Below, in pieces: positions 921-19,856 of a stretch of 64,000 nt of DNA (its first letter is position 1; each line of letters opens with the position of its first letter). The stretch lies in assembly GCA_964035575.1 (NCBI GenBank), contig OZ037833.1, positions 1,488,001 to 1,552,000 of the forward strand. Direction: 5' to 3'. The stretch comes from Rhynchopus sp. YZ270_cl-10 (Eukaryota). The notes below the pieces were generated by a model that ran no database searches, had not been told where the DNA came from, and worked only from the letters and a program-made list of their open reading frames with translations. The translations under genes and the position numbers were made by a program.

Positions 921-3252
921 GGCCATCCTCCAGTACAGGCCCGCAAAATTTGGCACAGAATGGGCCCAAAAAAACCAGCACAGAATGGAAACGAAAAACC
1001 AGCACAGAATGGAATAGTCGGAGCCTTATAGCCGTGTTCCATTCTGTGCTGGCTTTTCGTTTCCATTCTGTGCTGGTTTTTCAGAAAATTTTTGATTTCC
1101 ATTCTGTACTGGCTTTTCGTTTCCATTCTGTGCTGGCATTTTGACTGAGAAAATGATCCGAAATTCAATACCCGGGTCAGGAGTTTTTTTTCCTCTCCTA
1201 ACAAATCCTTAAGGAAAAGTGAATTATGGATTGCTCAGGATTCCGCAGCCATTCCATTCTGTGCTGGTGTTTCAAAAAAGTACACTTTTTCGTTACGAAC
1301 CAAAAAGTGCACTTTTCTGAAACACCAGCACAGAATGGAATAGCTGGGGAATCCTTAGCAATCCATAATTCACTCTTCCCCTAACAAATCCTTAAGGAAA
1401 AGTGAATTATGGATCACTCAGGATTTCCCAGCCATTCCATTCTGTGCTGGTGTTTCAGAAAAGTGCACTTTTTCGTTACGAACCAAAAAAGTGCACTTTT
1501 CTGAAACACCAGCACAGAATGGAATGGCTGGGAAATCCTGAGTGATCCATAATTCACTTTTCCTTAAGGATTTGCTAAGGGAAACAAAAACTGCTGGTTC
1601 TGGGGTTGGAACCTCCGACCACCAATTTCATACAGTGCACGGAACCTGTGTAGTACTCACTTGGATACTTTGTCTTGCATAAGGATTTTCACCAAGGCGG
1701 ACTAAGTGTCCCAGTGTGTAGCACAGGTTTCATACATAAGAGTTTCTTCGGTGTCGTAGGTTCAAACCCCAGAACCAGCAGTTTTTGTTTCCCCTAACAA
1801 ATCCTTAGGGAAAAGTGAATTATGGATTGCTAAGGATTTCCCAGCCATTCCATTCTGTGCTGGTGATTCAGAAAAGTGCACTTTTTTGGTTCGTAACGAA
1901 AAAGTGCACTTTTCTGAAACACCAGCACAGAATGGAATGGCTGGGAAATCCTGAGTGATCCATAATTCACTTTTCCTTAAGGATTTGCTAAGGGAAACAA
2001 AAACTGCTGGTTCTGGGGTTGGAACCTCCGACCACCAATTTCATACAGTGCACGGAACCTGTGTAGTACTCACTTGGATACTTTGTCTTGCATAAGGATT
2101 TTCACTAAGGCGGACTAAGTGTCCCAGTGTGTAGCACACAGGTTTCATACATAAGAGTTTCTTCGCCGGCGGAGGTTCAAACCCCAGAAGCAGCAGCTTT
2201 TGTTTCCCCTAGCAAATCCTTAGGGAAAAGTGAATTATGGATTGCTAAGGATTTCCCAGCCATTCCATTCTGTGCTGGTGTTTCAGAAAAGTACACTTTT
2301 TCGTTACGAACCTAAAAAGTGCACTTTTCTGAATCACCAGCACAGAAGCCATTCCATTCTGTGCTGGTGATTCAGAAAAGTGCACTTTTTTGGTTCGTAA
2401 CGAAAAAGTGCACTTTTCTGAAACACCAGCACAGAATGGAATGGCTGGGAAATCCTTAGCAATCCATAATTCACTTTTCCTTAAGGATTTGTTAGGGGAA
2501 ACAAAAACTGCTGCTTCTGGGGTTTGAACCTCCGACCACTGGGAAAATAGAATGTGAACAACCCTTGTGGTGCCCACTTGGATGCTTCGTCAGCAATAAG
2601 GATTTCCATTAAAGTAGAGATAGTGTCCTAGTGGTTACCACACAGGTTCCGCACACTACATATTACTACTGGTCGGAGGTTCAAACCCCAGAGGGTGCAG
2701 TTTTTGTTGTTCGTGTGGTTAATAAGCTGGCTGGTGGGTGCGGGTGCACGGGACCCTGCTGGTTCTAGGTTGCGTTATCTGGCTGGTGGTTGTGCGGGTT
2801 TGCGGGTTGACGGGTGCGCGGGTTTGCGGTCCCTAGCTGGTTCGTGTGGTCGATAAGCTGGCTCTTGGGTGCGGGTGTGCGGGAACCTACTGGTTCTAGG
2901 TTGCGTTATCTGGCTGGTGGTTGTGCGGGTTTGCGGGTTGACGGGTGCGCGGGTTTGCGGTCACTAGCTGGTTCGTGTGGTTGTGCGGGTGCGCGGGGTT
3001 CGGGCAGCGTTATCTGGTTCTAGGTTGTGTTAACTGGCTGGTGTAGGTGAAACTTTTTGTCATTTTCAGGTGAGACAAAGTTTTGGCCTGAAAAATTTTC
3101 TCAAAAATCTTGCTCTGTGAAAAAAAAAATTTTTTGTGTAGAAAAATTTTTTTTGGCCTGTAAGTGGGTCAAGTCTGAGTCCGTCCATTCTGTGCTGGTT
3201 TTTGGGTCACCATTCTGTGCTGGATTCCGCCATTCTGTACTGGTGAGTCGCC
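921..3252. mobile_element. Non-autonomous TIR DNA transposon (MITE/foldback-like) with 8-bp TSD AAATACTG
   Basis: TSD at 913-920 and 3253-3260. Imperfect TIRs GGCCATCCTCCAGTACAG / GGCGACTCACCAGTACAG. Many CCAGCACAGAATGG sub-repeats in both orientations, an internal ~420-bp tandem duplication, and no transposase ORF. Confidence 0.88.
2708..3045. repeat. GC-rich TGCGGGTT / CTGGCTGGTG modular repeat, same family as 20890-21700
   Basis: Repeated ggttctaggttgcgttatctggctggtggttgtgcgggtttgcggg modules nested inside the tRNA-Asp insertion. Confidence 0.8.
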
Positions 3253-3378
3253 AAATACTGACCTCTATACTACCGAGGATACAATCTTCACTCTGATTTA
3301 TTTTCGCGGATTAAAATGGTCTAAAATGAGCACAGAAATGACGAAAATGCATGAAAATTTGTGAACAAAAAAATGAAT

Positions 3379-5198: not shown

Positions 5199-5412
5199 TT
5201 CTCTTTTTCACTGGGAAGTGAAAATATGGAAAATGATTTTTCAAGATTCTCTCACCATCTTGGGATTTTGGTGACAACAAAGATATGGCAAAATACTTTC
5301 ACAAAAATGCACTTTTCCAAACTTCCTCATCTTGGGATTTTGGTGGTCGAAAAGATGTGGAAATAATTTTTCTAAACAATTCCCAAGCAAGAAACTACCT
5401 AAATAAAAAGAG

Positions 5413-5450
5413 GGGCTCAGCAGGGAATCGAACCCTGGACCTCTCGCACC
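5413..5450 (-). pseudogene. 3' half of a tRNA-Pro gene, 10 nt from the retrotransposon poly(A)
   Basis: Reverse complement GGTGCGAGAGGTCCAGGGTTCGATTCCCTGCTGAGCCC is the Pro-type anticodon 3' strand, T-arm and acceptor. The 5' half was not found in the window. Confidence 0.85.
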
Positions 5451-5456
5451 GGTATG

Positions 5457-5460
<4 letters not shown>

Positions 5461-5505
<45 letters not shown>

Positions 5506-8500
5506 CAACTTAGCCCTAGGCTCGCTTTTTTTAATCTACATCCAGTGACAGAGGGGGTACTTACTAGTCAAGCGAGTATGTAAACAGCTAGATGTCCAGA
5601 CAAGGGCACTTTACTATTGTACTGGCAAGACAGTGCCTGAAAACACAGTTAGTGGCACTAAAATAGAAAGCATGTGGGACAACTACAACCAACACTTCCC
5701 TGCAAATAAGCAAAAGGGTCGTATGTGAGTGCAATTTTTCCCAAAAGGAAAAGGGGAGGGGATGGGACGGGAGGGTTGCTCTGTCTACCGGTGTAGTTTT
5801 ATTTTGCTTTGTCTTGGGGAGGGGAGGGGAGGAGAAGGAGGGGATTGAGTGAGCCGTTTCCTCTGTAACACACAAACAAATAAAAAGGAAGTTCCATAAT
5901 CTTTTTAGTAGTTTTCTTTTTGGTGAAAATTTTTGAGAACTTCAGTAAGTGTGACCTGACCCGACTGACTGACACCCAAAGGGGAAAACAACAATAACGC
6001 ACAACAAAATCAACAACAACAATGGTGGGTCTCGTGCTTACCTGTGGTGGTTTTGAAAAATGAAAAATTGAAATTGACCTTCACAAGGTAAAAATGAAAA
6101 ACTAAAGGAGTGAAAAAAGGAACTCAAAGGACAAGAGTTCTGTACAAACTCTACTCTACTGCACAATCTATAAAAGTGGCCCAATGGCTCCTGATGCCAC
6201 TGGCCTGGCTCTTAGACAGGTCTTACTCCGAGACTGCCCTCTACCCTCAGAGCCTCGTCCAAGGGGTACGGGCCGTCGCTGGGGTAGACCCGTCCTAGCC
6301 AGCAGCCAACCAAAAATATTAACAAATAGGAAGGGGGGCGGAAAGGGGGGAAAGGGGGGGCAAACCCCAAAGGATGAAAAGAACAAAAAACACAAAATAA
6401 AAAGGGTTAAAAATAAACATGGGGCAAACTGTCATTCTCTACACGCTTCTACACACACACTCTCACCCTCTAACTCTCTAGCTCTCTAATTCTTTTTATT
6501 CCCCTTTTTCCCCTTCCTTCCTCCGCTCTGTCTCCCCTTCTGTCCACCACCGCGACCATTGCGCCCTCTCTGCACCTCCTGGGGCGAGAGCACATGCTGC
6601 GTCGCTTGTGCCACTGCGTCGGTGAACACGTTCGACGTGTTGGACCTACCCTGAGCTGCATGGCGCTGGGGTCCTTTGGGAGCTGGGGAAGGAGCAGGTT
6701 GGGCGGAGGAGGTTGCATTGCCACGGCCTGCCGATGAGGAGGAGGAAGAAGTGGAGACTGCAGGTTGGGCGATGGAGGTTGTAGTGCCACGGCCTGCAGA
6801 GGTGGAGGAAGAAGAAGAAGAAGAGGAGGCTTGAGGTTGTCGGCCTATTCCCTCTCGAGCCGCTCGTGCCTCATTCTCCCTCCTTGTACTCTCCGCTGCA
6901 AAGGCCTGCCCCCTACTGCTCCGGTTGTCCGTCAGGGCATGCAACGTCGACTTTGCCTTGCACTTTTCCTGAACCGACCACTCATGCAAACCCACCACCT
7001 TCATCACCTCATACCACTGAGTGAAAGTAGCGGTAGAGAGGGGGAGTGACAACAAGGGTCTGCCATCCTGTTTCTCTCCCTGACGGTAGTGGAACAGGGA
7101 GATCCACTTCGTCACAGAAGAAGGCACCGGCGACCCCATGGTGAGGCACGGGAAAAGACCCCCCCTCTCCGTCCGCTCCTCCTCCGTCCACATCCAAGCC
7201 TCGCTCTGCGCCCTCAGCAATTCCCTCACCCTCGCTTGCTTCTTCTGGTCAGGGATGCCTTCCACTGACAGAGAATGCGAGCGATCCGCCCCCTCCATCG
7301 CGGTGTCGAGGTCCTCCTCCTGCTCCTGCTCATCATCATCCATCTCCTCCACCTTCACACGCACCTCGGTGTCTGCCGCCTCGGCCTGTCGCCCCACCTC
7401 CTCCTCCAGCTGATCCCGAGAAGGGGTTCCCCAGCTGACCCTGCCTTCCCGAACGACGATGACCGCGCTGGTCTTGCCCCAGGTGTCGCAGTATCCGGCC
7501 TCCCCTGCTATCTTCCTAACCGCCTGACGGGCGACCACCGACTCCGGGCAATCACCGTCCCCCTCCCCGTTCCCACTCCACGGCTGCTGTGTCGCCCAGC
7601 AGTACAGGAACTCGCCCGGGCACGGAGAAGCACCTTGAGGACCAAAGAGAGCCATCCAGTCGCCGACACAGTCAGGTTCGAGTCCTTCAGGGTCGTCGCC
7701 CACCGCTCTCCGCACCGCATGGCAGGGGAGGAATAGCCGCCCTTCGCACACCACCCCAAAGCACCGCCCGTATGCCACCATGCGTTCCGCCTCCAGCTGT
7801 CGGGAGAGGTTCACCGCCGTCAACAACAGAGTGGTCGCCTTCTGCTCCGACTCATGCTTAGCTGCGATGGCGTAATGCCTCTCGCAGCGTTGCCTGTCAT
7901 ACTCCGCCCGGAGCGACTCTCCTGCTTCGGGGTGCCGATCGCAGTCTTCCAAGTACTGCGCATGCATCCTCTTCGCGTCCTCTGCGAGTTCCCGCTTGTG
8001 CCTGGCGGTCAGCTCCTCCACACGATGCCTGTCCGCCGCCTTCGCCTGGTCCAGACGCACATTCTGTTCCTCCAGGAAACGACTCAACTCCTGCTGGCGG
8101 TCGCCAAAAGTGCCCCGAAGCGCGGCCAAATCCGGTCCCCACGACCGACGATGCTCCCGCCGTACCTCCAGGGCTTGCTGCCACGCGTCCGACGCACGCT
8201 GCAACGCTTCCTTCTTATCCTGGTCCGCCTTTTGTTGTTGCTGCTTCTGCTGTTTCCGTTGCTTCTCGTGCTTCTGCTGCTTCTGTTCTGCCTGCTGCCC
8301 CTCTTCGCCCGCCATTGGCGTGTCTACCTCCTCGACGTCCTCGCCCTCGGGAGCTGGCACTGCTGGAGAAGGAGCCCGTTTAGGTGGTGGGTCTCCGCTC
8401 CCCTCCGCAGAGGCAGCCTGAGCCGGAACATTCGAGTGCAAAAAAGACAGGGCACTGAAGTATTCCGCCCTGCCAATTTGCGACAGAGGGCAGTGCTTGG

Positions 8501-11500
8501 ACCCCTGAGCGCAGTGCAGACATGCCAAGCCACCACACGTGTGACAGCAGAAGTGTGCGTCCGACGCATCGAAGAGCTTGCTGCATTGTTCGCACTGCAG
8601 GAAAGTGTTCGACGCCTCCGCCTCCCTCGCTCCCACAAAAGCCATGGGGCGCTCTGACTGGCACTCCCCCTTACCACCTGTGGCCTCAAAAGACAGGATG
8701 TGCTGCTGCAGAGCCGGGTCCATGGTGAGGGGCTCGTAGTGTCCCGGGATACTGCCGGATCCATCTGCCGCATCCTGGTCACCCGAGTGGAGGAGAAGGA
8801 CCACTGCCTTAGGCCGTTTTCTTGGCACCATCAGAGAAGGGCGGGCGAACTCGTTGAGGATGACCACAGATACCTCAAGAGCCTCCCCTGCCCCCGCCAC
8901 TGCAATGGCATCCGCCCACGTTCGCTGGTCTCCTCTGTCCCCACTCGTCATCAGCCGCTGCCAGACCCCAAAATTAGGGACAGCCGCACTCGACAGATCA
9001 GCGCGGCCCTGGACCTTCTTCACTGCCGCCTGGCGCAGACCCTCCACCGACAAATCCGTGCGCCCGGTGGCGAAGAGCAAAGCCTCAAAAGCACAGTCCC
9101 CCGCCACAAACGACCAAGTCACCTTCGAGGCTCCCAGCTTGGCCGCCTGTTCCGTCGCCCGAGGCCTCTGCGCTGCCGGGCACTCACGCAAAAACTCCCA
9201 CTCACGCACCACATCGAGACCCGGCCCTTCCGGAATCACGGTAGCCGAATCAAACCTCCCGGTCCGCTTCCTCGGTGGCTCCACGTGGTCCGGCTTCACG
9301 TCCCTCTTGCGCTTCCCCTGCTGCTCCTCCGACCGGTCTGGAGCAGGACGACTCATATCGTCGTCAGGGTTCGCATCATCACAGAGAGGTTCCACAGCCC
9401 CTGCACTGCGGCGTCCAAACCGGTCCATGTCCTCTGCAGACGGTGCCACATCTACCTCCACACACGGCTCCCGCTTCAGGGTGGCAATCCCTACACACAT
9501 AGCACCCCGCTCCAGAAAGGAAGATGCGACCTTTTTCTGGTACGCCACCGCAATGCTCTCCCGGATGCGCAACTCTGCCGACCCTGTTAGGTGCGACGTC
9601 TGTCCCGTCGTCAGGCCTCCAAGCTGCGCAATCAAGAGGTTCGCCTCGTCGCCTGCACCCCCGAAGGCTTCAAACACAATAGGGGAGAACTTGGTGTTGA
9701 TCTTGTTCAAATCCCGCTCGTGCTTCTCCCGTTTGACCTGGCCCTGGTTCTTCGCCGACCAGCCCACAAACTTCGAGGCCCCTGTTCTGTAGGAAGGCAA
9801 GGTGGGGCACACGTGGGTGATGTCCAAACAACGAGGTCCATTTTCCGCCACTCCTACTGGGAGGTAGACATCGCCTGGCCGCTTCTTAGACTCCAACTCC
9901 ACTCGCACGGTCTCCTCCAAAGCAGGGTCCAAGCCCGCCCCTTGAGCCGCTCTGTACACCGAATCCCGCAAGGCGTTGTGGCGGGCGACGCGGTGTTTGG
10001 AGTAGGGGCAGCCAAAGGTGTGGTCGCCAAAGGAGTCCATGACAACCCTTTTCTGCCCCCCCTGACATGCCGAGCAAGTCGTTCCCTCCGCATGGATGGC
10101 CACCCCTAGTCGGAAACGGGTCACAACCGCAAAATCCGCTGAAGACATCTGGTTCCTTGCTGATGGTGTCGCCGTGAGGTACGTCCCAGAAAGCGGCAGG
10201 AGAAGGGACTTCATCCGTGCTCGGTCTCGCATGCAGAGCTGTTGCATCAACTTGTCTGCCTGGGCGTCAATCACCGCAGATGACAGACTCTGCTGCTCCA
10301 GGATCTTCTTCGGCTGGGCCCTGTCCACGTGAAACGCCACCGGTACCCTGGAGTTGTACTCCTCAGCTGCGCTGTTCCATCTCTCCTCATCCCAGGTGAA
10401 GGCAGGGTCCAAGGCCTGCGACAGTTGCAGGTTCCCTGACTGAGAGGCGAGGGACGCAGCCGTCCGATGGTCCACTGTGCGACGGATACCCAGCCCCCCA
10501 AGCGCCACAGGAAGCGCCGCCTGCGCCCTTGCCAACTCCGGCAGCGCCCCATCCGGGTCATGCAGAAGCGCAGCCAGGCACCTGTCGATCAGGTCGTCAA
10601 AGGCCGTCAGGTACTCCGCGCACTGTGGGATCCCCCGCATGTAGAACACCATGCGGCAGTAGCCTTCGCAGTATCTCAGTACGTAGAAGGCTGCCTGGGA
10701 GTCCCCGAGGTCCACAAGGGCTTCCAGGTTGCGGCGGGAATCGTCCACCTTCCGGGCCATGTACTCCTCGCAGAATGCCGCAGACCCAATGGGGATGCCC
10801 AAGAAATCGAACCCATCCACATCCAACAGCCGGAACCCGCCTTCACCCATGGCGTCCTGTCCACCCTCGGTCAACGTGAACCCCACCGCCTTGAGCTCCT
10901 CCGTGGAGACGCCACCAGTGGAGATGAGCTCACACTTGTTCGCGTTCACCTCCAACCCCAGTTCGGAGCTACGAGTGCGCAGAACCTGGTACGCCTCAAA
11001 AACCGCCTTAGGGGACCCCCGCAGAGAGCCGTCATCGAGGTACCACAAAGTCCCATCCAGGCCTGGGTGCCCCTTCAGCTCTAGCGCCATCTGGTGGATG
11101 GTCAGGGAGAAGAGAAGCGGGCCCAAGGGATCTCCTTGTTGAGCTCCGCGCTGTGACCTTATGGTATCTCCACCATAAAACAGGCTGGAGGGCTCCAGGT
11201 AACACCATCGCACCCATGGGGCCAGCTCGGGGAGGTTCGCGTCGACCGCTCTTAGCATCGACAGGCGGTCTACGCAGTTGAACGCGTTACGGTAGTCAAT
11301 TTTCAAAATGACTTTACCTTTTCCGCGGTTGCGCACGGCGTACTGCGAGATAACATCCGTCGCCACTGCCGCCCCCCTTGCCGTTGCCACCCCCACCTGG
11401 TTCCCTCGAAGAAGAAGCGTCCTAGCAGGCACCCGCACTCGCGCCGACAGAATCTTTCCCACCAGTCTGCGGAGAGTGTCCCCAACCGCAATCGGTCGCA

Positions 11501-13590
11501 CGTCCTCCTCCAGGCCCGGCCCCTTTGCAGGCTTCCGGAGAGCCACCAAGTTAGCGCCGGCGAAGAACTCAGCCACCTCCACTGGAGCATTTCCTCGTGC
11601 CAAAGACGTCAACACTGCGGCCAGCGCTGCCAAAGTGCCCTTAGCCCGCCTCTGTAGGCAAAGTGTACGAAGGTGCGCGCCCGTCACGTTCGAGGGACCC
11701 GCCGCCGATGACTTCGGCATGCTCCGCAGGGCCTTCATCACCTCCACCACTGTCACCGGTGGGACCTCCTGAGGCTGGGGCCAATCCGCCTGCTCCAGGG
11801 CCTTGGAGTCGGCAGCGGCTGGGTGCTTCGTCTGAAGCTTTTCCAGCGTCGCCGGTGTCTGTGGGGCGAGGCCGTCGCTGGTAGCGCAAGACATGGCCTG
11901 GCTCGGGAGTCCTGCTCTCGCTTTGGCGATGGTGCGCTTCCGTCTCCCTTCGTCAGTGTCTTCATCCGACCACCCAGAGGGCCTTGGCTTCCGCTCCTCT
12001 ACCGTTTGCTCCCACAGGGCGACATACTGGCCAGCCTTCCAAGCCTCCAAGTCCTTCCCCCAGGTGCTCGTCAAACGTCGCTCCTGGTCCTTGCCCCCTC
12101 GTTCTGTCCGTGTCCGGTGCAACACTGTGAAGAACAGTGCAAGGCGCTTCCAGGCCACCTCGTCCTGGTACTCCAGGATGTCCATGAGGACCCTCAGGAA
12201 GAGCTCGCTGTACAGCTGTAGGTGTTTGTCTGGGCACCCGCCCTTCAGCTGGATCCTGGTGGTCCCCATGACTTCAAAGGAGGGGAGGTCATCCTGATCT
12301 GTCAGCATTCCTCGACTGGAGGGAGACGGAGCGGTGAAGCCTTCTTCGCCAAAGTGCACCGTACAGGTGTTGCAGACCTCCTTGCTCTGCGGCAATAGCA
12401 TGTCGCACTGATCGTTCGCACAGCGCGACATGCCCAAGTGGCCCAACAGCTCGTCGGGGATGTACGCTCCATCGGCCTGGTGGCGACGCATGTGCTGCAG
12501 CAAGCCCTTACGAGACAGGCCCCCGACCGCATCACTCGAAGACAAAATTCCCGCTCTGCATCCATCAAAGGGGCAGAACACCCGATCCGCATTGATGTGT
12601 CCCAGCTTGGTAGCCAGGGGGGCGGTGGTGGTGGTGTTGGTGGGGATGATGCCATCCAAATGCGCTGTGTCCAGCACTGCCTGCCGAGCCTCCTTCCTCA
12701 TCTTCTCTGCCATCCCCTCCTTGGTCTTCCCCACCTCCGGGACAAGCTCCACTGCCTCAAAGTGAGAGTCACAGAGAGCGATGACGACCGTGGGAAGTTT
12801 CGCTTGGAAGCTCTCCGCGTACGACTTGGCGACTCTTTTGCTACCAGGGGTGATGCGCACGAGGGGGTTCTCTTCCGATGCCTGCACCACCACGATGTTG
12901 ATGCGGGATGCTGTCGCGGTGAGCTGAAGCCCCAAGTGGTTGAGGTGGGCCTCGCCGGTCACACCATTGGCAAACTCCGTCATGGCCTCCTGCGACCCCA
13001 GCACCTGCACCAGGCGGTTCGACACCTCCACTGCTGTGTCATACAGCTGCTTGCGCATTGCCCTCACGTCCGGCTGCGTGTCGTGGTCCCAGAGGTGTAG
13101 TGCCACATAACCACAATCATTAGTAGACACGTTGGGGATGCGTTTAGCTCCAAACTTCGCCAGAGTCGCGTCCACAGACACCGCCTGCTCAGTATACGCA
13201 GGAGCGTTCACGTTTGCGCACCCACCGGTCAACGCAAACGGGGACAAGCTTACCGGGTGCTCCGGATCAGCAGGGGCAGGGCGCAGGTCCCAGGGCGTCA
13301 CCGCTCGCCACAACAACGACAGCAAGACCAGTAGGGACACCGCCAGCATGCCAAATGCCATCCCGATCCTACGAGTCCACCTGCGTGCTGCCACACGGCG
13401 CACCTCCAAGAGAAGAACCCAGCCAAGTGGGCGCGCGACGCCGACCAGTGCCACAAAACCCGCCAAACAACCACCTGCGGACCATGCAACCCACACCCAC
13501 TCGGCTGCACGCACCGACAACTGACCCACCCCCATCACACTGGCTCTCACCAAGCTGGCAGCCACTCGGATCCCTCCGGTCCATCGGTGC
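5461..13590 (-). mobile_element. Non-LTR retrotransposon, CRE clade (RT plus restriction-like endonuclease), poly(A)-tailed
   Basis: Poly(T) on the + strand at 5461-5506, ~1-kb 3' UTR, and a single long ORF with CRE-type RT and RLE motifs. The 5' boundary is approximate and must lie below the U4 promoter at 13592. No TSD found. Confidence 0.9.
6486..13535 (-). CDS. Retrotransposon polyprotein: hydrophobic N-terminus, OTU-like protease 1, Zn fingers, RT, Zn knuckle, RLE, OTU-like protease 2, Cys-rich Zn finger, coiled coil, basic tail
   Basis: RT: RPIAVGDTLRRLVGK, KIDYRNAFN, QRGAQQGDPLGPLLF, WYLDDG. CCHC: CSAC..DHTFGC. RLE: RHNALRD..KRPGD..LDITHV..KREKH. OTU-like: NDCGYVAL..HFEAV and GDCAFEAL..WAD..GHYEPL. 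Start placed at the first ATG outside the U4 gene and its promoter. Confidence 0.88.
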   Translation of the reverse strand: MGVGQLSVRAAEWVWVAWSAGGCLAGFVALVGVARPLGWVLLLEVRRVAARRWTRRIGMAFGMLAVSLLVLLSLLWRAVTPWDLRPAPADPEHPVSLSPFALTGGCANVNAPAYTEQAVSVDATLAKFGAKRIPNVSTNDCGYVALHLWDHDTQPDVRAMRKQLYDTAVEVSNRLVQVLGSQEAMTEFANGVTGEAHLNHLGLQLTATASRINIVVVQASEENPLVRITPGSKRVAKSYAESFQAKLPTVVIALCDSHFEAVELVPEVGKTKEGMAEKMRKEARQAVLDTAHLDGIIPTNTTTTAPLATKLGHINADRVFCPFDGCRAGILSSSDAVGGLSRKGLLQHMRRHQADGAYIPDELLGHLGMSRCANDQCDMLLPQSKEVCNTCTVHFGEEGFTAPSPSSRGMLTDQDDLPSFEVMGTTRIQLKGGCPDKHLQLYSELFLRVLMDILEYQDEVAWKRLALFFTVLHRTRTERGGKDQERRLTSTWGKDLEAWKAGQYVALWEQTVEERKPRPSGWSDEDTDEGRRKRTIAKARAGLPSQAMSCATSDGLAPQTPATLEKLQTKHPAAADSKALEQADWPQPQEVPPVTVVEVMKALRSMPKSSAAGPSNVTGAHLRTLCLQRRAKGTLAALAAVLTSLARGNAPVEVAEFFAGANLVALRKPAKGPGLEEDVRPIAVGDTLRRLVGKILSARVRVPARTLLLRGNQVGVATARGAAVATDVISQYAVRNRGKGKVILKIDYRNAFNCVDRLSMLRAVDANLPELAPWVRWCYLEPSSLFYGGDTIRSQRGAQQGDPLGPLLFSLTIHQMALELKGHPGLDGTLWYLDDGSLRGSPKAVFEAYQVLRTRSSELGLEVNANKCELISTGGVSTEELKAVGFTLTEGGQDAMGEGGFRLLDVDGFDFLGIPIGSAAFCEEYMARKVDDSRRNLEALVDLGDSQAAFYVLRYCEGYCRMVFYMRGIPQCAEYLTAFDDLIDRCLAALLHDPDGALPELARAQAALPVALGGLGIRRTVDHRTAASLASQSGNLQLSQALDPAFTWDEERWNSAAEEYNSRVPVAFHVDRAQPKKILEQQSLSSAVIDAQADKLMQQLCMRDRARMKSLLLPLSGTYLTATPSARNQMSSADFAVVTRFRLGVAIHAEGTTCSACQGGQKRVVMDSFGDHTFGCPYSKHRVARHNALRDSVYRAAQGAGLDPALEETVRVELESKKRPGDVYLPVGVAENGPRCLDITHVCPTLPSYRTGASKFVGWSAKNQGQVKREKHERDLNKINTKFSPIVFEAFGGAGDEANLLIAQLGGLTTGQTSHLTGSAELRIRESIAVAYQKKVASSFLERGAMCVGIATLKREPCVEVDVAPSAEDMDRFGRRSAGAVEPLCDDANPDDDMSRPAPDRSEEQQGKRKRDVKPDHVEPPRKRTGRFDSATVIPEGPGLDVVREWEFLRECPAAQRPRATEQAAKLGASKVTWSFVAGDCAFEALLFATGRTDLSVEGLRQAAVKKVQGRADLSSAAVPNFGVWQRLMTSGDRGDQRTWADAIAVAGAGEALEVSVVILNEFARPSLMVPRKRPKAVVLLLHSGDQDAADGSGSIPGHYEPLTMDPALQQHILSFEATGGKGECQSERPMAFVGAREAEASNTFLQCEQCSKLFDASDAHFCCHTCGGLACLHCAQGSKHCPLSQIGRAEYFSALSFLHSNVPAQAASAEGSGDPPPKRAPSPAVPAPEGEDVEEVDTPMAGEEGQQAEQKQQKHEKQRKQQKQQQQKADQDKKEALQRASDAWQQALEVRREHRRSWGPDLAALRGTFGDRQQELSRFLEEQNVRLDQAKAADRHRVEELTARHKRELAEDAKRMHAQYLEDCDRHPEAGESLRAEYDRQRCERHYAIAAKHESEQKATTLLLTAVNLSRQLEAERMVAYGRCFGVVCEGRLFLPCHAVRRAVGDDPEGLEPDCVGDWMALFGPQGASPCPGEFLYCWATQQPWSGNGEGDGDCPESVVARQAVRKIAGEAGYCDTWGKTSAVIVVREGRVSWGTPSRDQLEEEVGRQAEAADTEVRVKVEEMDDDEQEQEEDLDTAMEGADRSHSLSVEGIPDQKKQARVRELLRAQSEAWMWTEEERTERGGLFPCLTMGSPVPSSVTKWISLFHYRQGEKQDGRPLLSLPLSTATFTQWYEVMKVVGLHEWSVQEKCKAKSTLHALTDNRSSRGQAFAAESTRRENEARAAREGIGRQPQASSSSSSSSTSAGRGTTTSIAQPAVSTSSSSSSAGRGNATSSAQPAPSPAPKGPQRHAAQGRSNTSNVFTDAVAQATQHVLSPQEVQRGRNGRGGGQKGRQSGGRKGKKGNKKN

Positions 13591-13591
13591 A

Positions 13592-13606
13592 CTTCCCTGT
13601 GGACAT
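13592..13606 (+). promoter_or_regulatory. PSE-like element of U4 (CTTCCCTGTGGACAT, -47)
   Basis: Same motif and offset as upstream of U2 (13887) and the SL RNA genes (-46). Confidence 0.7.
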
Positions 13607-13638
13607 AGCTTTGTGACACGACTGGGAGAAAAGGAGGT

Positions 13639-13780
13639 ATTCTTGCGCTCGGGATAATTCCATAAGCAATGACCAAATAGGGACGCTGTGGAGAGATTGC
13701 TGGTTGAAAACTACCCAATTCCCGCCATGGGCCGCTTCGGCGTTGCCACATTGGCAATTTGTGTAGCTGCTTCGGCGGCC
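13639..13780 (+). ncRNA. U4: U4 snRNA
   Basis: 5' ATTCTTGCGC pairs with U6 GCGCAAGGAT (stem II). Kink-turn-like GCAATGACC-AAATA-GGGACGC; TGCTGGTTGAAAACT (stem I, conserved U4 motif); CCCGCCATG...CATTGGC; Sm site AATTTGTG; terminal cUUCGg hairpin. Confidence 0.92.
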
Positions 13781-13886
13781 TTGTTTTTACTAATAAGATT
13801 GATCATCACCTTCACTTACTTCCCTGTGACATGGGTGTGTAATCTGCTTGCCTTGTTGTTTCCTAGTAATATTGATCATAATCATG

Positions 13887-13900
13887 CTTCCCTGTACATG
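13887..13900 (+). promoter_or_regulatory. PSE-like element of U2 (CTTCCCTGTACATG, -47); second copy near 13819
   Basis: Motif and spacing shared with U4 and the SL genes. Confidence 0.72.
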
Positions 13901-13933
13901 GGTGTCGAATTCGGTATGGACTAAAAAGAAGTC

Positions 13934-14120
13934 ATACCTTCTCGGCCTTTTGGCTAAGATCAAGTGTATTATCTGTTCTTATCAGCTTAATATCTGATAC
14001 AGTGCCTTGTGCACTGATGATATTAACGCAATTTCTCATTGGGGTGACGGGTCGCCAGGGCAACCTGGTCCGTTCACACATGTTGCCCTGGAGCTGCACA
14101 ACATCCAGGAGTGGCATACC
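13934..14120 (+). ncRNA. U2: U2 snRNA
   Basis: ATACCTTCTCGGCCTTTTGGCTAAGATCAAGTGTATTATCTGTTCTTATCAGCTTAATATCTGATA is the U2 5' domain. The 3' stem-loop IV has a TGCAC loop and is followed by a T-run. Confidence 0.97.
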
Positions 14121-14217
14121 CTCTTTTTTAACAAAACAAAAACAAACATACCATACATACCATACATACACAGTGGTTACCACTGTGATGTGGGTTATTA
14201 AAAACAGAGGTCGGAGC

Positions 14218-14366
14218 GAGCCTCTCAATGTCAGAGGCTTCAAAGCATTTCACGAGAAAACTCGCCCCTGTCCTTCTTCATCACTATCACTTGACCGAAC
14301 ACTCCCTGCAAGGAAGCCTGTAAAAGGCGATGCTTAGGCAACAACACAGACACAGGGGGGGTGCTG
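14218..14366 (-). ncRNA. U5: U5 snRNA-like (divergent or pseudogene)
   Basis: Invariant loop-1 nonamer GCCTTTTAC closed by AAGC/GCTT and CCCTGTG/TGCAGGG stems. Degenerate Sm-like AATGCTTTGA is followed by the hairpin AGCCTCT-GACATTG-AGAGGCT. Ends are approximate. Confidence 0.55.
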
Positions 14367-14385
14367 GGTGGGAAAATATAAAAAA

Positions 14386-14710
14386 GGGTGCTTGCGTTGT
14401 GTGCTGGATCGGGACCACCAGTAAACTGGCAGCCCCACATCCAGTTCTAATATTTGAAGTGTGAAATAGAACGCAGTCAGAATTAGTGTTACACGCTAAT
14501 GTAAGAATAATCATCATGGGTAATATTCTGTACGAACGTACGGGATTTACATCATATGAAAGTAGTTCCGCCTTGGGCCATATCAGGCCCAACAGCAGGA
14601 CCGCATCATAAAAATTGTAAAGAATTTTCTTAAATAGAAAGGTCTTTTCAAGTTTTAGCTGTTGCTGAACGAGTTGTTTGGTTTCGAAGTAGCACACTAA
14701 CTTAGCACCC
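14386..14710 (-). ncRNA. Unidentified ~325-nt structured Pol III-type RNA
   Basis: 5'/3' closing stems GGGTGCT/AGCACCC and GTGTGCT/AGCACAC, an immediate T6 terminator, internal hairpins, and the U6/7SL upstream element at the identical -34 offset. Confidence 0.75.
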
Positions 14711-14734
14711 AAACATAGGGAGAGTATGGGAAAA

Positions 14735-14770
14735 CAAGACAGGGTTGTCTTGTTGGAGGTGGGTCAGGGT
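14735..14770 (-). promoter_or_regulatory. Upstream element shared by the unknown RNA, 7SL (15446-15480) and U6 (16035-16083)
   Basis: caagacaggg...gttggag.tgggtcagg occurs three times. The CCCTGT core starts 34 nt before each inferred 5' G (14710, 15421, 16010). Confidence 0.75.
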
Positions 14771-14831
14771 GACACACACTTTGTACATGCATCATATGTG
14801 TGAATGTTTTTTCTCATGGTGACGTAAAAAA

Positions 14832-14944
14832 GGCCAGTCTCTTTCGAGGCTGGCCATGTTTGACAAAGTTGTGTGAGAAGAATATAATCTTCATGCTTCC
14901 ATACCAATGAAGTACAGAAACTGTAGCTTTAGAAATCGTTGGTT
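14832..14944 (-). ncRNA. SL: Spliced-leader (SL) RNA gene copy 1 (40-nt exon 14905-14944)
   Basis: AACCAACGATTTCTAAAGCTACAGTTTCTGTACTTCATTG/GTATGG: diplonemid-type exon and GT donor, two further hairpins and a T-run. Confidence 0.96.
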
Positions 14945-15104
14945 GCCCTTTTTCTTAACATTGCTCTAAGCACCAACATGTACTGGTAAACATGCCACTT
15001 GTGGTGAATAATGTGGGTAGGAATGGTCTGGGCAACGTGGTGGGGTGTATCAACAACACATGTGTATGGTGATGTGGAAACAATGTTCACATGGAAAAAT
15101 GTAA

Positions 15105-15421
15105 AAAAGAAACGCTTCTCCAGTTCAAGCCATTGAGTTGGAAACACCCTCACTCTGCTCTGTGCTGCGATCCTTGAACTGTCCACTGCAGGAGTTATGA
15201 GCTGCTCTGTGAGACCAGCCTGGCCCGGTTCACCCCATTTCACTCTGATTGTTGCCCTGGTTTACACCAAGGCCGCAAACAGGACAGTAGACTAACACGG
15301 ACAACACATCAACACAGAAGTTGAAGGTGCCTTTGGTCCACCTCAAAGAGTGCCCAGTTCTGGAGAAGCTTGCCCCCCCAGAAGCTAGGGGTTTCAGGAT
15401 GCAGCCAACACATCCCGGCTC
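15105..15421 (-). ncRNA. 7SL: 7SL / SRP RNA
   Basis: Alu 5' GCCGGG...CCTGAAACCCCTAGCTTCTGGGGGGGC; helix 6 with GTAA tetraloop; helix 8 CCAGG..AGCAG SRP54 motif; GCTTCTCCAG/CTGGAGAAGC pairing; T-run. Confidence 0.93.
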
Positions 15422-15574
15422 AATAGATACCATATTGTCGGAATACAAGACAGGGTTGTCTAGTTGGAGGTGGGTCAGGTCAAAAACGTGGTTTTGAAGA
15501 TCCTCACTTCTTGTGTGTGTTTTTTTTTTGCTTTGCACAAAGACACACAAAGACAATCATGCTAACGTAAAAAA

Positions 15575-15686
15575 GGCCAGTCTCTTTCGAAACTAGCCAT
15601 GTTTTGACAAAGTTGTGTGAGAAGAGTAATCTTCATGCTTCCATACCAATGAAGTACAGAAACTGTAGCTTTAGAAATCGTTGGTT
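15575..15686 (-). ncRNA. SL: SL RNA gene copy 2
   Basis: Identical 40-nt exon and GT donor; small intron-region differences. Confidence 0.96.
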
Positions 15687-15904
15687 GCTCTTTTTCTCTA
15701 CACAGCTTTCGACATGTATATGCTCAGGGAAGCATGCCAGTAGCATAAACCATATGGTCGTTTTTTGAAACCAATATTTCAATGGGTTACTGCAGCCTGC
15801 CACTTGCCACCTGTGGGTGATGGGTATGTCTGCACATATGTGTTGGTCTGGGAAGCATGAAGAAGACACCAGTGTAAAAAATACGTGTGATCCGGGGGAC
15901 AAAA

Positions 15905-16010
15905 AAAAAGTTGATACTTTCTCGATTAATGCGTGTCATCCTTGCGCAGGGACCATGCTAATCTTCTCTGTATCGATCCAATTTTAACGGATGTCCCATT
16001 TCTGGGGTCC
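15905..16010 (-). ncRNA. U6: U6 snRNA
   Basis: ACAGAGA box, AAGATTAGCATGGTCCCTGCGCAAGGATGACACGCA, and a T9 end. Confidence 0.98.
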
Positions 16011-16166
16011 AGTATATATGCACAAGGTGGTTGACAAGACAGGGGCCCCTTGTTGGAGTTGGGTGTTGGAGTTGGGTCAGGGTCTGAATGTGGTTCTAAA
16101 CTTCTGCTGTTGTTGTGTGGGTTTTTTTGCTTCTTGTGCACAAGACGATCGTGTTAACGTAAAAAA

Positions 16167-16278
16167 GGCCAGTCTCTTTCGAAACTGGCCATGTTTTGAC
16201 AAAGTTGTGTGAAGAATATAATCTTCATGCTTCCATACCAATGAAGTACAGAAACTGTAGCTTTAGAAATCGTTGGTT
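16167..16278 (-). ncRNA. SL: SL RNA gene copy 3
   Basis: Identical exon and donor. Confidence 0.96.
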
Positions 16279-16525
16279 GCCTTTTTTCTCTACAATGTTC
16301 TAAGCTCCTACGTGTGCTGGGAAGCCATCTTTCAGTGTCCTAAATATGGTCGCTCTCATAAGAGTCAACAGTGGTTTCTGAAGGGGCATATGTGGTACCA
16401 GTGCCACAAATGGTTGCCCACATGGTTTTGCAGGCGATATACAAATGGGTTTCAGCAAGCACTTGTGTGTGATGGGAATCATGTGTGTTTTTTGGGTTTG
16501 CACAAGGTGATGTTAACGTAAAAAA

Positions 16526-16639
16526 GGCCAGTCTCTTTCGAGGCTGGCCATGTTTTGACAAAGTTGTGTGAGAAGAATATAATCTTCATGCTTCCATACC
16601 AATGAAGTACAGAAACTGTAGCTTTAGAAATCGTTGGTT
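16526..16639 (-). ncRNA. SL: SL RNA gene copy 4
   Basis: Identical exon and donor; upstream CATGCTTCCCAGTACATG with CTTCCC at -46. Confidence 0.96.
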
Positions 16640-17894
16640 GCCTTTTTTCTCTACAACGTTCTGAGCACCAACATGTACTGGGAAGCATGACAGTAGTATC
16701 AAAAATATGATGGTTTTTTCGTACCTAACATCTTGTACACTGAGAAGGTTCTGCACAAGTGGAAGCCTATATAAGAATATTCATAAGAGTCAAAAGGGGC
16801 TTCTGAAGGGGTATATGGGTAGTATGAGCTCATATGAATCCATTAAAAGCGTCTATGGCATGATCAAAGCATCACATAATTTCTGAAATCAATACCAACC
16901 ACAATTTACGGCTATTTTTCCAGCAATAGCCGTATCATGGCTTATAACCATACCTAAGGATGCCCAATATGCTGGAAAAGTTAATAATCTTGGGTATATA
17001 GGGTTTTTGGGCACATTTGAGTCAATTGCGGGGTCTTACGATTTAATTTGAGCATCACACATATCCTAATCACCTATATAATCGAAAAACACACACAAAA
17101 TGACCTACATAGCCGTAAAATGACCCAAATGTGCATATTCGGGTTGAAATTTCATTTTTTCGGAAAGTTTTTTTTTCTCAACAATTACATGGGTGAGTTC
17201 CGAGTACATTATGGGGTCGTAAGTTTTTATTCAAGCATCACACATTATGTAGAATACTTATGCCATACAATGTTACCAAAAAAAGTCGATTTTTGGTCAC
17301 TTTTTCAAAAATATGAAAATTCGATTTTTGGGTACTAGATAGGTCTTTCCGGTGCAAAAACGACCGTTAAATGGATTCTCCGGGGTCCTAAGGCCCCAAA
17401 AATCACTTTTGGACACACGGGCAATATCCCAGTATACCCTAGGAAATTGGTGGGAACCCAAAAATTGGCCTCAAAATCCGACCAAAACCAAGGTTTCTGT
17501 AGAGGTACATGTGAACCTCATGTGTGTTCTGGAGACCCATTTTGTTTTGAAAAGTGAATCTAAATAGCCAAAAATTTAAAACTCTTGTAGCGCATTCGGA
17601 ATAGAGGGGGTATTCGCGAAAACCTGTGCGAAACATTTATCAATTCAGGTCTGACCCACATGGTCATGACCCCATATTTTGGGTGCGGAAAACACCCTAT
17701 CTGTTGACCTACCGGCTTGTATGCCTGTATACCTGGTTGGGTCAACTTTTTGAAAATTTCCTGGGCCATATACCCTATTTGGGCCCCCTGAATCCATTGC
17801 GACATCGTTTTTTCACATCCGAGTGAAAACTAATATATAGGATAACCCATGGGTATGGGTACCTCGCTCAATACCCCTAAAATCAGTGCTTTTG

Positions 17895-19768
17895 ACTACA
17901 CACCCACACACAGCACACCCACACACACCCACACACACACACACACACACCCCCTCACCACCAGGGGGATTTGACCAAAAAATCGATTTTTTTAAATAAA
18001 TAGTTGCTCATCCAAAAGTGAATTTTTTGGGCTTAACGTGTTGTTTGGGGGTATTGAGGCCCAAAAAAAAATCCTAAAAAACCTTAGTTTTTTAGTCTTT
18101 ACTATAGAGATGTGCGCCACCCACACCACACACACTACACACCCACACACAGCACACCCACACACACCCACACACACACACACACACACCCCCTCACCAC
18201 CAGGGGGGATTTGACCAAAAAATCGATTTTTTTAAATAAATAGTTGCTCATCCAAAAGTGAATTTTTTGGGCTTAACGTGTTGTTTGGGGGTATTGAGGC
18301 CCAAAAAAAAATTTTTTTTCAGTCGTGTTCAGAAATTGGACTGCCAAATGACATGTGGCATTCGGCCAAAAATCCTAAAAAACCTTAGTTTTTTAGTCTT
18401 TACTATAGAGATGTGCGCCACCCACACCACACACACTACACACCCACACACAGCACACCCACACACACCCACACACACACACACACACACCCCCTCACCA
18501 CCAGAGGGGATTTGACCAAAAAATCCTAAAAAACCTTAGTTTTTTAGTCTTTACTATAGAGATGTGCGCCACCCACACCACACACACTACACACCCACAC
18601 ACACACACACCCACACACACACACACACACCCCCTCACCACCAGAGGGGATTTGACCAAAAAATCGATTTTTTTAAATAAATAGTTGCTCATCCAAAAGT
18701 GAATTTTTTGGGCTTAACGTGTTGTTTGGGGGTATTGAGGCCCAAAAAAAAATCCTAAAAAACCTTAGTTTTTTAGTCTTTACTATAGAGATGTGCGCCA
18801 CCCACACCACACACACTACACACCCACACACAGCACACCCACACACACCCACACACACACACACACACACACCCCCTCACCACCAGGGGGGATTTGACCA
18901 AAAAATCGATTTTTTTAAATAAATAGTTGCTCATCCAAAAGTGAATTTTTTGGGCTTAACGTGTTGTTTGGGGGTATTGAGGCCCAAAAAAAAATTTTTT
19001 TTCAGTCGTGTTCAGAAATTGGACTGCCAAATGACATGTGGCATTCGGCCAAAAATCCTAAAAAACCTTAGTTTTTTAGTCTTTACTATAGAGATGTGCG
19101 CCACCCACACCACACACACTACACACCCACACACAGCACACCCACACACACCCACACACACACACACACACACCCCCTCACCACCAGAGGGGATTTGACC
19201 AAAAAATCCTAAAAAACCTTAGTTTTTTAGTCTTTACTATAGAGATGTGCGCCACCCACACCACACACACTACACACCCACATACTGTAAACTTGTTTAA
19301 GTAGCTTTGCTACGCCAGGGGGGTCTCTAGGATAAAATATGTCGCGAATAAGAAAGTCTTTTCCCCCTCCCCCTTTTTCGCTATGGATATATTTTTTTTT
19401 TTTTTTGCGCGTACCATTTCTCTATTGCTACGTGCCCTTTTGTTGTTATTGCTTACCACTTGCTTCGGCAAGGTTGGTTGAGGACGTTACGGGGAAATCT
19501 CACCACCACCTTCATCAGTATTTTGTGTTGTGTTTCCCCAGTCTCGCCCTCATGACCACATACCTCGCTGCCGTTTTTTCGGCGCTATTAACCAAAAAAG
19601 ACCTTTCCCCCCATATTTTATCCTAAAGAGACCCCCACACACACACACCCACACACACACACACACACCCCCTCACCACCAGAGGGGATTTGACCAAAAA
19701 ATCGATTTTTTTAAATAAATAGTTGCTCATCCAAAAGTGAATTTTTTGGGCTTAACGTGTTGTTTGGG

Positions 19769-19770
<2 letters not shown>
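17895..19770 (+). repeat. Modular CA-rich tandem repeat family with a ~680-bp higher-order duplication
   Basis: Recurring aaaaccttagttttttagtctttactatagagatgtgcgccaccc + (CA)n + gggatttgaccaaaaaatcg + aaatagttgctcatcc modules. Inverted copies lie at 25900-26075 and 27005-27375, and a direct piece at 34443-34570. Confidence 0.9.
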
Positions 19771-19808
<38 letters not shown>

Positions 19809-19856
19809 TGTTGTTCAACTTAGCCCTAGGCTCGCTTTTTTTATCTACATCCAGTG
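19771..19856 (-). mobile_element. Severely 5'-truncated copy of the CRE retrotransposon 3' end
   Basis: Poly(T) followed by ttcaacttagccctaggctcgcttttttt.atctacatccagtg, which matches about 5505-5546. Confidence 0.85.

Follow-up and report, generated by a model that had tools for sequence, protein, structure and literature searches.

How are the small nuclear RNA (snRNA) genes of diplonemids transcribed? In trypanosomatids all snRNAs are products of RNA polymerase III (Pol III; PMC4950102), while the spliced leader (SL) RNA gene of trypanosomes is a Pol II gene and the SL genes of Trypanosoma brucei have been described as the only known ones with a Pol II pre-initiation complex (PMC5829719). 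The question is raised by a 64,000-nt stretch of Rhynchopus sp. YZ270_cl-10 (contig OZ037833.1, positions 1,488,001 to 1,552,000), called the window below. It holds a cluster of small RNA genes in the order U4 and U2 on the + strand, then RNA X, SL1, 7SL, SL2, U6, SL3 and SL4 on the - strand. A sequence-only reading of the window had noticed a motif common to the upstream regions of U2, U4 and SL, and had proposed that U2 and U4 use SNAPc-type upstream promoters like SL, as the ancestral state. The analysis reported here favours this reading at a probability of a little under 0.6: U2, U4 and SL would have SNAPc-type Pol II upstream promoters, U6, 7SL and X would have a separate Pol III element, and this arrangement would be ancestral.

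An upstream element common to U4, U2 and the SL RNA genes

Gene starts from Rfam or from homology were used for all offsets. The 8-mer CTTCCC(A/T)G stands at -47 of U4 and U2 and at -46 of SL copies 2 to 4, and the variant TTTACCAG (14990) stands at -46 of SL1; all six coordinates and offsets of the sequence-only reading were re-derived and found to be right. The extension that it had reported is present in three of the six, with GTACATG directly after the core in U2, SL1 and SL4. With both strands counted, the 8-mer occurs 16 times in the window. The region upstream of U2 exists as a tandem duplicate (13778-13838 against about 13849-13905, 80% identical). A gene in register (-46/-47) with the copies at 13819 (+) and 15855 (-) was searched for and none was found.

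The four SL copies are paralogues, and SL was therefore counted once in the chance tests, in which the best position-anchored 8-nt block across U4, U2 and SL4 was scored. The three upstream regions were alike in 23 of 24 letters at -47/-46. This score was reached by 0 of 1000 shuffles, by 0 of 600 shuffles restricted to the 47 host-derived nt, and by 0 of 120 triplets of tRNA upstream regions. When one gene was swapped for a tRNA (30 of 30 sets) or for U6, 7SL or X (9 of 9), the block score fell to 19-21. A profile made from the four SL copies alone (-50 to -38) and ranked over window positions ranked U2 within the best 0.02% and U4 within the best 3.1%, with U6, 7SL and X at 37-67%; one of ten scored tRNAs reached 0.8%. 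U4, U2 and SL also have in common a stretch of purines (about -13 to -2), where the SL-only profile (-13 to -1) ranked U4 within the best 0.15% and U2 within the best 4.4%, and put U6, 7SL and X at 30-92%. The feature in the window is real and non-random. It is quite likely that the element shared by U2, U4 and SL is functional.

As a separate observation on the SL genes, the 5' part of the motif (-51 to -42) recurs in inverted form within the SL intron (+45 to +54), nearly symmetric about the start. The match extends over 10, 9 and 6 nt in SL4, SL2 and SL3, respectively; a length of 10 nt was reached by 12 of 500 shuffles, and the 22 other loci do not show the match as a rule.

A different upstream element at U6, 7SL and RNA X

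U6 and 7SL make up a class of their own, in agreement with what a Pol II/Pol III split predicts. The genes of the cluster fall into the two groups that are assigned to Pol II and Pol III in known systems with an upstream sequence element (USE) or proximal sequence element (PSE), which involve SNAPc (PMC8287931; PMC1761439). U6, 7SL and X are without CTTCCC(A/T)G and carry a two-part element instead, with a proximal part at -34 to -36 and a distal part at -58 to -60. At -35 the three genes are alike in 24 of 24 letters (0 of 1000 shuffles). Between the two window classes there is a mere resemblance of the CCC(A/T)G core, in positions 10-11 nt apart. A TATATA stands at about -9 of the window U6.

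The distal part of the U6-type element (14768, 15479, 16081) reads loosely as a tRNA box A on the opposite strand, and a stretch similar to it occurs at 13520, within a retroelement. In the public runs X1, X5, X8 and X9 many variant contigs cover window positions 14130-15110, and loose contig ends run from the U6-type element into other sequences, which suggests more copies of the element or more genes carrying it.

Gene grouping in other diplonemid-type species

Metagenomes were scanned for the SL exon/intron junction, which gave 63 loci (L-numbers below); a stricter pattern with more intron bases gave 0 loci. Rfam was applied to 48 of the 63, and in the other 15 the match stood at the contig end and was read as belonging to a trans-spliced mRNA. 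Some of the loci used (L003/L013, L021, L054/L062) are close kin, and L029 belongs to the same cluster as L036 and L048. L011 is a close relative of the window (U2 97.9% and U4 85.0% identical).

The motifs YTGYY, GGC(A/G) and RC(A/C)AC used for the following counts are short and were picked after viewing the sequences. In L011, RC(A/C)AC occurs at -23 to -19 of U1, U2, U3, U4, U5 and SL (6/6; block 34/42, 0/150 shuffles), and in L029 the same six genes have GGC(A/G) at -56 to -49 (6/6; block 36/42, 0/150 shuffles). L003 was weaker (block 23/28, 3/400 shuffles). The controls in L029 gave 0/120 for U1+U2+U4+SL and 9/300 for U1+U2+SL, and 36 and 31 of 300 when U6 or 7SL was the third gene. Across loci, YTGYY at -38 to -32 was present in 10 of 12 upstream regions of the U6/7SL/X class versus 2 of 24 of Sm-class and SL genes, and GGC(A/G) at -56 to -49 in 11 of these 24 versus 0 of 12. 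Across species the gene grouping recurs and the element sequence does not.

The L011, L003, L029, L036 and L059 loci also contain U3 snoRNA genes below the Rfam gathering threshold (L011:646, L003:700, L029:1778, L036:1778, L059:52), which were identified as U3 by their 5' end. Dense clusters of tRNA, 5S, tRNA-Sec, snRNA and single SL genes were seen in L029/L036, L021/L013, L062/L054, L056 and L046; in L021 many tRNAs end in T3 at most.

Upstream tRNA boxes

In trypanosomatids box A stands about 104 nt upstream, and this distance is conserved (PMC4950102). With box A and box B profiles built from the 11 window tRNAs, a divergent box A at -90 to -120 plus a box B was found at 0 of 28 snRNA, 7SL and X genes. 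A divergent tRNA is present at one of the 28, the 7SL gene of L029, where the tRNA starts at -70. Most neighbouring tRNAs in L029 lie on the same strand, and their box B could therefore still aid transcription.

Clusters of snRNA and tRNA genes in L029/L036, L021 and L062, and T-runs after most genes, resemble what is known of the trypanosomatid snRNA and 7SL genes, which are transcribed by Pol III from divergent tRNA boxes (PMC4950102). Unlike there, the neighbouring tRNAs are mostly on the same strand or absent, and the box layout itself is missing. In L011 (938-1251) U1 begins 43 nt past U5 and has at -47 a CTTCCCA that comes from the 3' stem of U5, and in L022 (860-1311) 7SL begins 56 nt past U6; at neither place is there therefore room for a tRNA-like promoter.

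Upstream of U4 lies a retroelement whose match to P0001 begins at 13592, the edge of the U4 motif. That the motif is retroelement coding sequence was rejected, since the 99% match starts at this position and the preceding residues differ; 7 of the 8 motif letters are host DNA. The retroelement belongs to the family P0001-P0003, and a short 3'-end piece with poly(A) recurs at 19771-19856.

RNA X, a candidate vault RNA

The U6-type element led to RNA X and its homologues, an unannotated family of structured RNAs which Rfam had missed. RNA X folds better than 100 of 100 shuffles. Together with its homologues in L059, L058 and L036 it forms a set of four copies. All four fold with one and the same pair of helices at the ends, the inner one showing a two-sided change, and share an invariant 10-nt 5' segment that resembles box A. 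The 11 variants listed inside X from the contigs of four public runs all fall at nt 76-259 of 325.

A vault RNA was suspected from a sequence motif before testing. The L058 copy aligns to the whole Rfam Vault model RF00006 as the best of 3 matches, with 14.2 bits (E 0.74), which is below the gathering score of 34 bits; the X copies of the window, L059 and L036 gave no match to this model. The best internal box B scores were 4.6 bits in X and 3.4 bits in L059, the two copies scored, versus 11.6-18.0 bits for tRNAs.

Vault RNAs are described as paired at their ends and variable in the centre, with promoter elements upstream (PMC7058938), and a T. brucei vault RNA is cited in PMC7058938 and PMC12547018. 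RNA X is similar in its paired ends and variable centre (copies of 78-325 nt), in a box A-like stretch at the same place, in its T-run end and in an upstream element common to U6 and 7SL. It differs in lacking a recognisable box B, in scoring below the Rfam threshold and in its length of 325 nt. RNA X is probably a vault RNA, though we do not class it as a member of that family.

Other identities were considered for X. Telomerase RNA and RNase P/MRP were rejected, with no Rfam match and no CCCTAA-type template seen on reading X. U3 was rejected likewise; X has no Rfam match to it, and U3 is a different gene, present in five loci and not in the window. The centre of X (nt about 190-235) resembles SL introns, with 15/16 nt to L011 and 25/30 nt to L030 (E 2.3 and 0.65), a likeness that could be fortuitous.

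Promoter model and competing explanations

In the model that we prefer, the element at -47/-46 and the purine tract at about -13 to -2 would together form a gene-external promoter of U2, U4 and SL. A SNAPc-type factor would bind it and likely recruit Pol II, and the element at -35 and -59 would serve Pol III at U6, 7SL and X. The element sequence would turn over between species and stay uniform within one. Upstream promoters are plausibly the ancestral euglenozoan state, and tRNA-borrowed Pol III promoters would have come later, on the kinetoplastid line. What stood of the proposed SNAPc-type promoters of U2 and U4 is the element in register with SL, the missing tRNA-box layout, the grouping of U1-U5 with SL in two other species and the separate U6/7SL class; what did not carry over is the window U4 as a witness on tRNA boxes and the motif as anything but species-specific. 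The accompanying statement that in trypanosomatids only SL uses SNAPc was too strong, because chromatin immunoprecipitation (ChIP) of SNAP50 gave peaks at snRNA/tRNA clusters of Leishmania major, T. brucei data being contrary (PMC2679053). A wider version appears tentative, its chances falling slightly short of even: diplonemids would keep two-class gene-external snRNA promoters with SL as one more Pol II snRNA, kinetoplastids would have borrowed tRNA promoters later and so kept SL as their last gene of the Pol II/SNAPc kind, the code would be rewritten in concert between species, and it would flag an unannotated diplonemid vault RNA family of 78-325 nt.

A number of observations count against the preferred model. 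Unlike in USE/PSE promoters (PMC8287931), no element is detectably common to both classes, the SL-built profile failing to score U6, 7SL or X at the element position, and no TATA box stands near -30 of U6 and 7SL (none in 12 of 12 upstream regions of the U6/7SL/X class, read by eye). The close relative L011 keeps just 15-17 of 60 nt identical to the window upstream of U2 and U4, and the window profile fits three of its six genes (SL, U1 and weakly U3; not U2, U4 or U5). From 46 SL upstream regions, collapsed to 31, nine of other SL types and five already used were taken away, which left 17 held-out regions of diplonemid type. The outcome on them is modest: a universal diplonemid SL motif was rejected on this set, with the window motif in 0 of 17; GGC(A/G) was present in 4 of 17 (191/5000 shuffles) and RC(A/C)AC in 3 of 17 (21/5000). 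In neither of the two held-out X homologues does YTGYY fall within the range set beforehand; L036 is off by one position, L058 by one position and one letter. At the window U4, native DNA beyond about -47 has been replaced by the retroelement, and this copy is therefore uninformative on upstream tRNA boxes; the best box A-like score near -111 (8.2 bits) has no box B and lies inside the retroelement. The far end of the retroelement abuts a divergent, broken tRNA-Pro, and no target-site duplication is present. Like 11 of 11 window tRNAs, U2 and U4 have T-runs at their ends, and T4 or more follows 9 of 14 Sm-class genes. Finally, SNAP50 is also found at the Pol III snRNA loci of L. major; the factor and the polymerase are therefore two separate questions, and SNAPc would be no proof of Pol II.

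The length of the T-run was tried as a marker of the polymerase and rejected, as it fails to separate the classes (T4 or more also follows 8 of 11 U6/7SL/X genes). It is unlikely, though worth weighing before the other alternatives, that the shared element is a real SNAPc-type site at genes nevertheless made by Pol III, with the choice set by gene-internal sequence or spacing. The T6 and T5 directly after U2 and U4 would fit this, as would the SNAP50 ChIP signal that L. major shows at snRNA loci transcribed by Pol III (PMC2679053), the Pol III transcription of all trypanosomatid snRNAs (PMC4950102) and the assumption made for Euglena U3 that it is a Pol III gene (PMC2784804). However, U2 and U4 group at the same spacing with SL, a Pol II gene in trypanosomes (PMC5829719), and not with U6 and 7SL; the SL copies likewise end in T6; and two of the 14 Sm-class genes, U5 of L029 and U1 of L022, have no T-run above 2 after the gene, whereas 13 of 14 L029 tRNAs have a T3 run.

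Improbable is also the explanation that the shared sequence has no promoter role and is a remnant of local duplication or conversion of flanks in a multi-copy cluster. Neutral copying would not hold the spacing to three different genes within 1 nt, nor would it sort genes by class, and the grouping comes back, under different sequences, in L011 and L029, whose genes occupy both strands and are interspersed with tRNAs. Such copying would account for the tandem duplicate upstream of U2, the orphan copy at 15855, the 18/19-nt match of U2 and SL4, the absence of the motif from L011 U2 and U4 and from the 17 held-out loci, and the many variant contigs of the neighbouring stretch in public runs (2832 in run X1). 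Less probable still is that U4, and perhaps other genes, is driven in the trypanosomatid manner by a divergent tRNA, here the tRNA-Pro broken by the retroelement, with the motif secondary. An uninserted U4 allele could have a trypanosomatid-like tRNA upstream: with the retroelement and an undefined deleted stretch removed, and with no target-site duplication, the tRNA-Pro would adjoin the U4 upstream region, and the L029 7SL offers the one divergent tRNA among the 28 genes. Set against this, divergent tRNA boxes are absent from U4 in L011, L029 and L003 (3/3) and from U2, U6, 7SL and X of the window.

Comparison with known promoter systems

The USE/PSE promoters of plants, ciliates, algae and animals (PMC8287931) have several properties in common with the elements described here: a gene-external element at a fixed distance, common to U1-U5 within a species, a different architecture at U6 and SRP (signal recognition particle) RNA genes, fast sequence change between species, and a CCC(A/T) core, as found in USEs of ciliates, algae and Plasmodiophora. 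The diplonemid element differs in standing closer to the start (-47) and in including SL RNA in its class. To judge by their layout, the diplonemid elements behave like USE/PSE promoters without two canonical features, the element common to both classes and the TATA box; a promoter function is what we infer for them.

The trypanosomatid SL promoter (Pol II, with tSNAPc and TBP; PMC2679053, PMC5829719) has its element near -50, where SNAP50 and TBP are found in L. major (PMC2679053), and a T-run after the gene, both as in the window. The difference is that here the element also precedes U2 and U4, and in relatives U1, U3 and U5. In Euglena, U3 genes stand alone or are linked to convergent tRNA or U5 genes (PMC2784804), an arrangement that fits a tRNA-independent ancestor.

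Gene linkage and gene form can be compared as well. In the Diplonema papillatum SL-5S-U2 repeat (PMC10161547) SL and U2 are likewise linked in a diplonemid, whereas in the window the SL copies alternate with 7SL, U6 and RNA X, U4 and U2 adjoin, and 5S has no match. Trypanosomatid U2 is about 143 nt long and without stem-loop III (PMC4950102); the window U2 is full length at 191 nt. This U2 and the SL exon make it likely that the organism is a diplonemid and not a trypanosomatid. We take the exon type labelled 'Euglenozoa 14' to be that of Diplonema; the label names no species. The 40-nt SL exon of the window opens like this exon in the table of PMC3795323.

Among the literature matches listed, there was no paper on diplonemid snRNA promoters or on a diplonemid vault RNA. 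PMC10161547 and PMC12621601 identify diplonemid snRNA genes, with no promoter analysis in the main text; in that of PMC10161547 the word 'promoter' has 0 occurrences. Integrator, SNAPc, PHAX and vault had 0 mentions in the supplementary files searched for two diplonemid papers (7 and 6 files).

If the preferred model is true, the trypanosome arrangement, with all U snRNAs made by Pol III via tRNA boxes and only SL by Pol II, arose after the split from diplonemids. The trypanosome SL promoter would then be a remnant of an ordinary snRNA promoter. With a length under 60-75 nt the elements are compact, and diplonemid genetics might use them as candidate signals for expression by Pol II and Pol III.

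Features of the locus and its surroundings

Table 1. Small RNA genes, upstream elements and associated features (window coordinates unless a locus is named)
Feature	Coordinates	Strand	Remarks
Broken tRNA-Pro, 3' half	5405..5460	-	At retroelement poly(A) end, divergent to U4
Non-LTR (long terminal repeat) retroelement, 5'-truncated	~5461..13592	-	RVT_1, poly(A) tail; 99% aa to P0001 from residue 204
U4 element	13592..13605	+	Core -47; 5' edge = retroelement junction
U4 snRNA gene	13639..13778	+	Rfam RF00015, 63.3 bits; T5 directly after
Extra element copy	13819..13833	+	Within tandem duplicate of U2 upstream region, not independent
U2 element	13883..13900	+	Core 13887, -47; 18/19 nt as in SL4
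U2 snRNA gene, full length	13934..14124	+	191 nt; Rfam RF00004, 141.6 bits; T6 directly after
RNA X, candidate vault RNA	14386..14710	-	325 nt; fold z -5.8; homologues L059/L058/L036; T6 after end
U6-type element of X	14734..14768	-	Distal -58, proximal -34
SL RNA copy 1	14832..14944	-	40-nt exon; start 14944
SL1 variant element	14977..14994	-	Core -46 at 14990
7SL (SRP) RNA gene	15112..15419	-	Rfam RF00017, 129.3 bits
U6-type element of 7SL	15445..15479	-	Distal -60, proximal -36
SL RNA copy 2	15575..15686	-	Start 15686
SL2 element	15725..15736	-	Core -46 at 15732
Orphan element copy between U6 and SL2	15848..15860	-	Core 15855
U6 snRNA gene	15904..16009	-	Rfam RF00026, 93.7 bits
U6-type element of U6	16034..16081	-	Proximal -35; distal block partly duplicated, -59 and -72
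SL RNA copy 3	16167..16278	-	Start 16278
SL3 element	16317..16326	-	Core -46 at 16324
SL RNA copy 4	16526..16639	-	Start 16639
SL4 element	16672..16690	-	Core -46 at 16685
X homologue	L059:287-364	+	78 nt
X homologue	L058:1400-1485	+	86 nt
X homologue	L036:3804-3685	-	120 nt

The cluster is adjoined by a tandem repeat array with CA-rich units (window about 17850-19770). Further away, a tRNA-Asp-like gene (about 870-920 and 3250-3280, -) is apparently interrupted by a repetitive insertion of 2.3 kb that is flanked on both sides by an 8-nt direct repeat; the box matches of the gene are at 888 and 3272.

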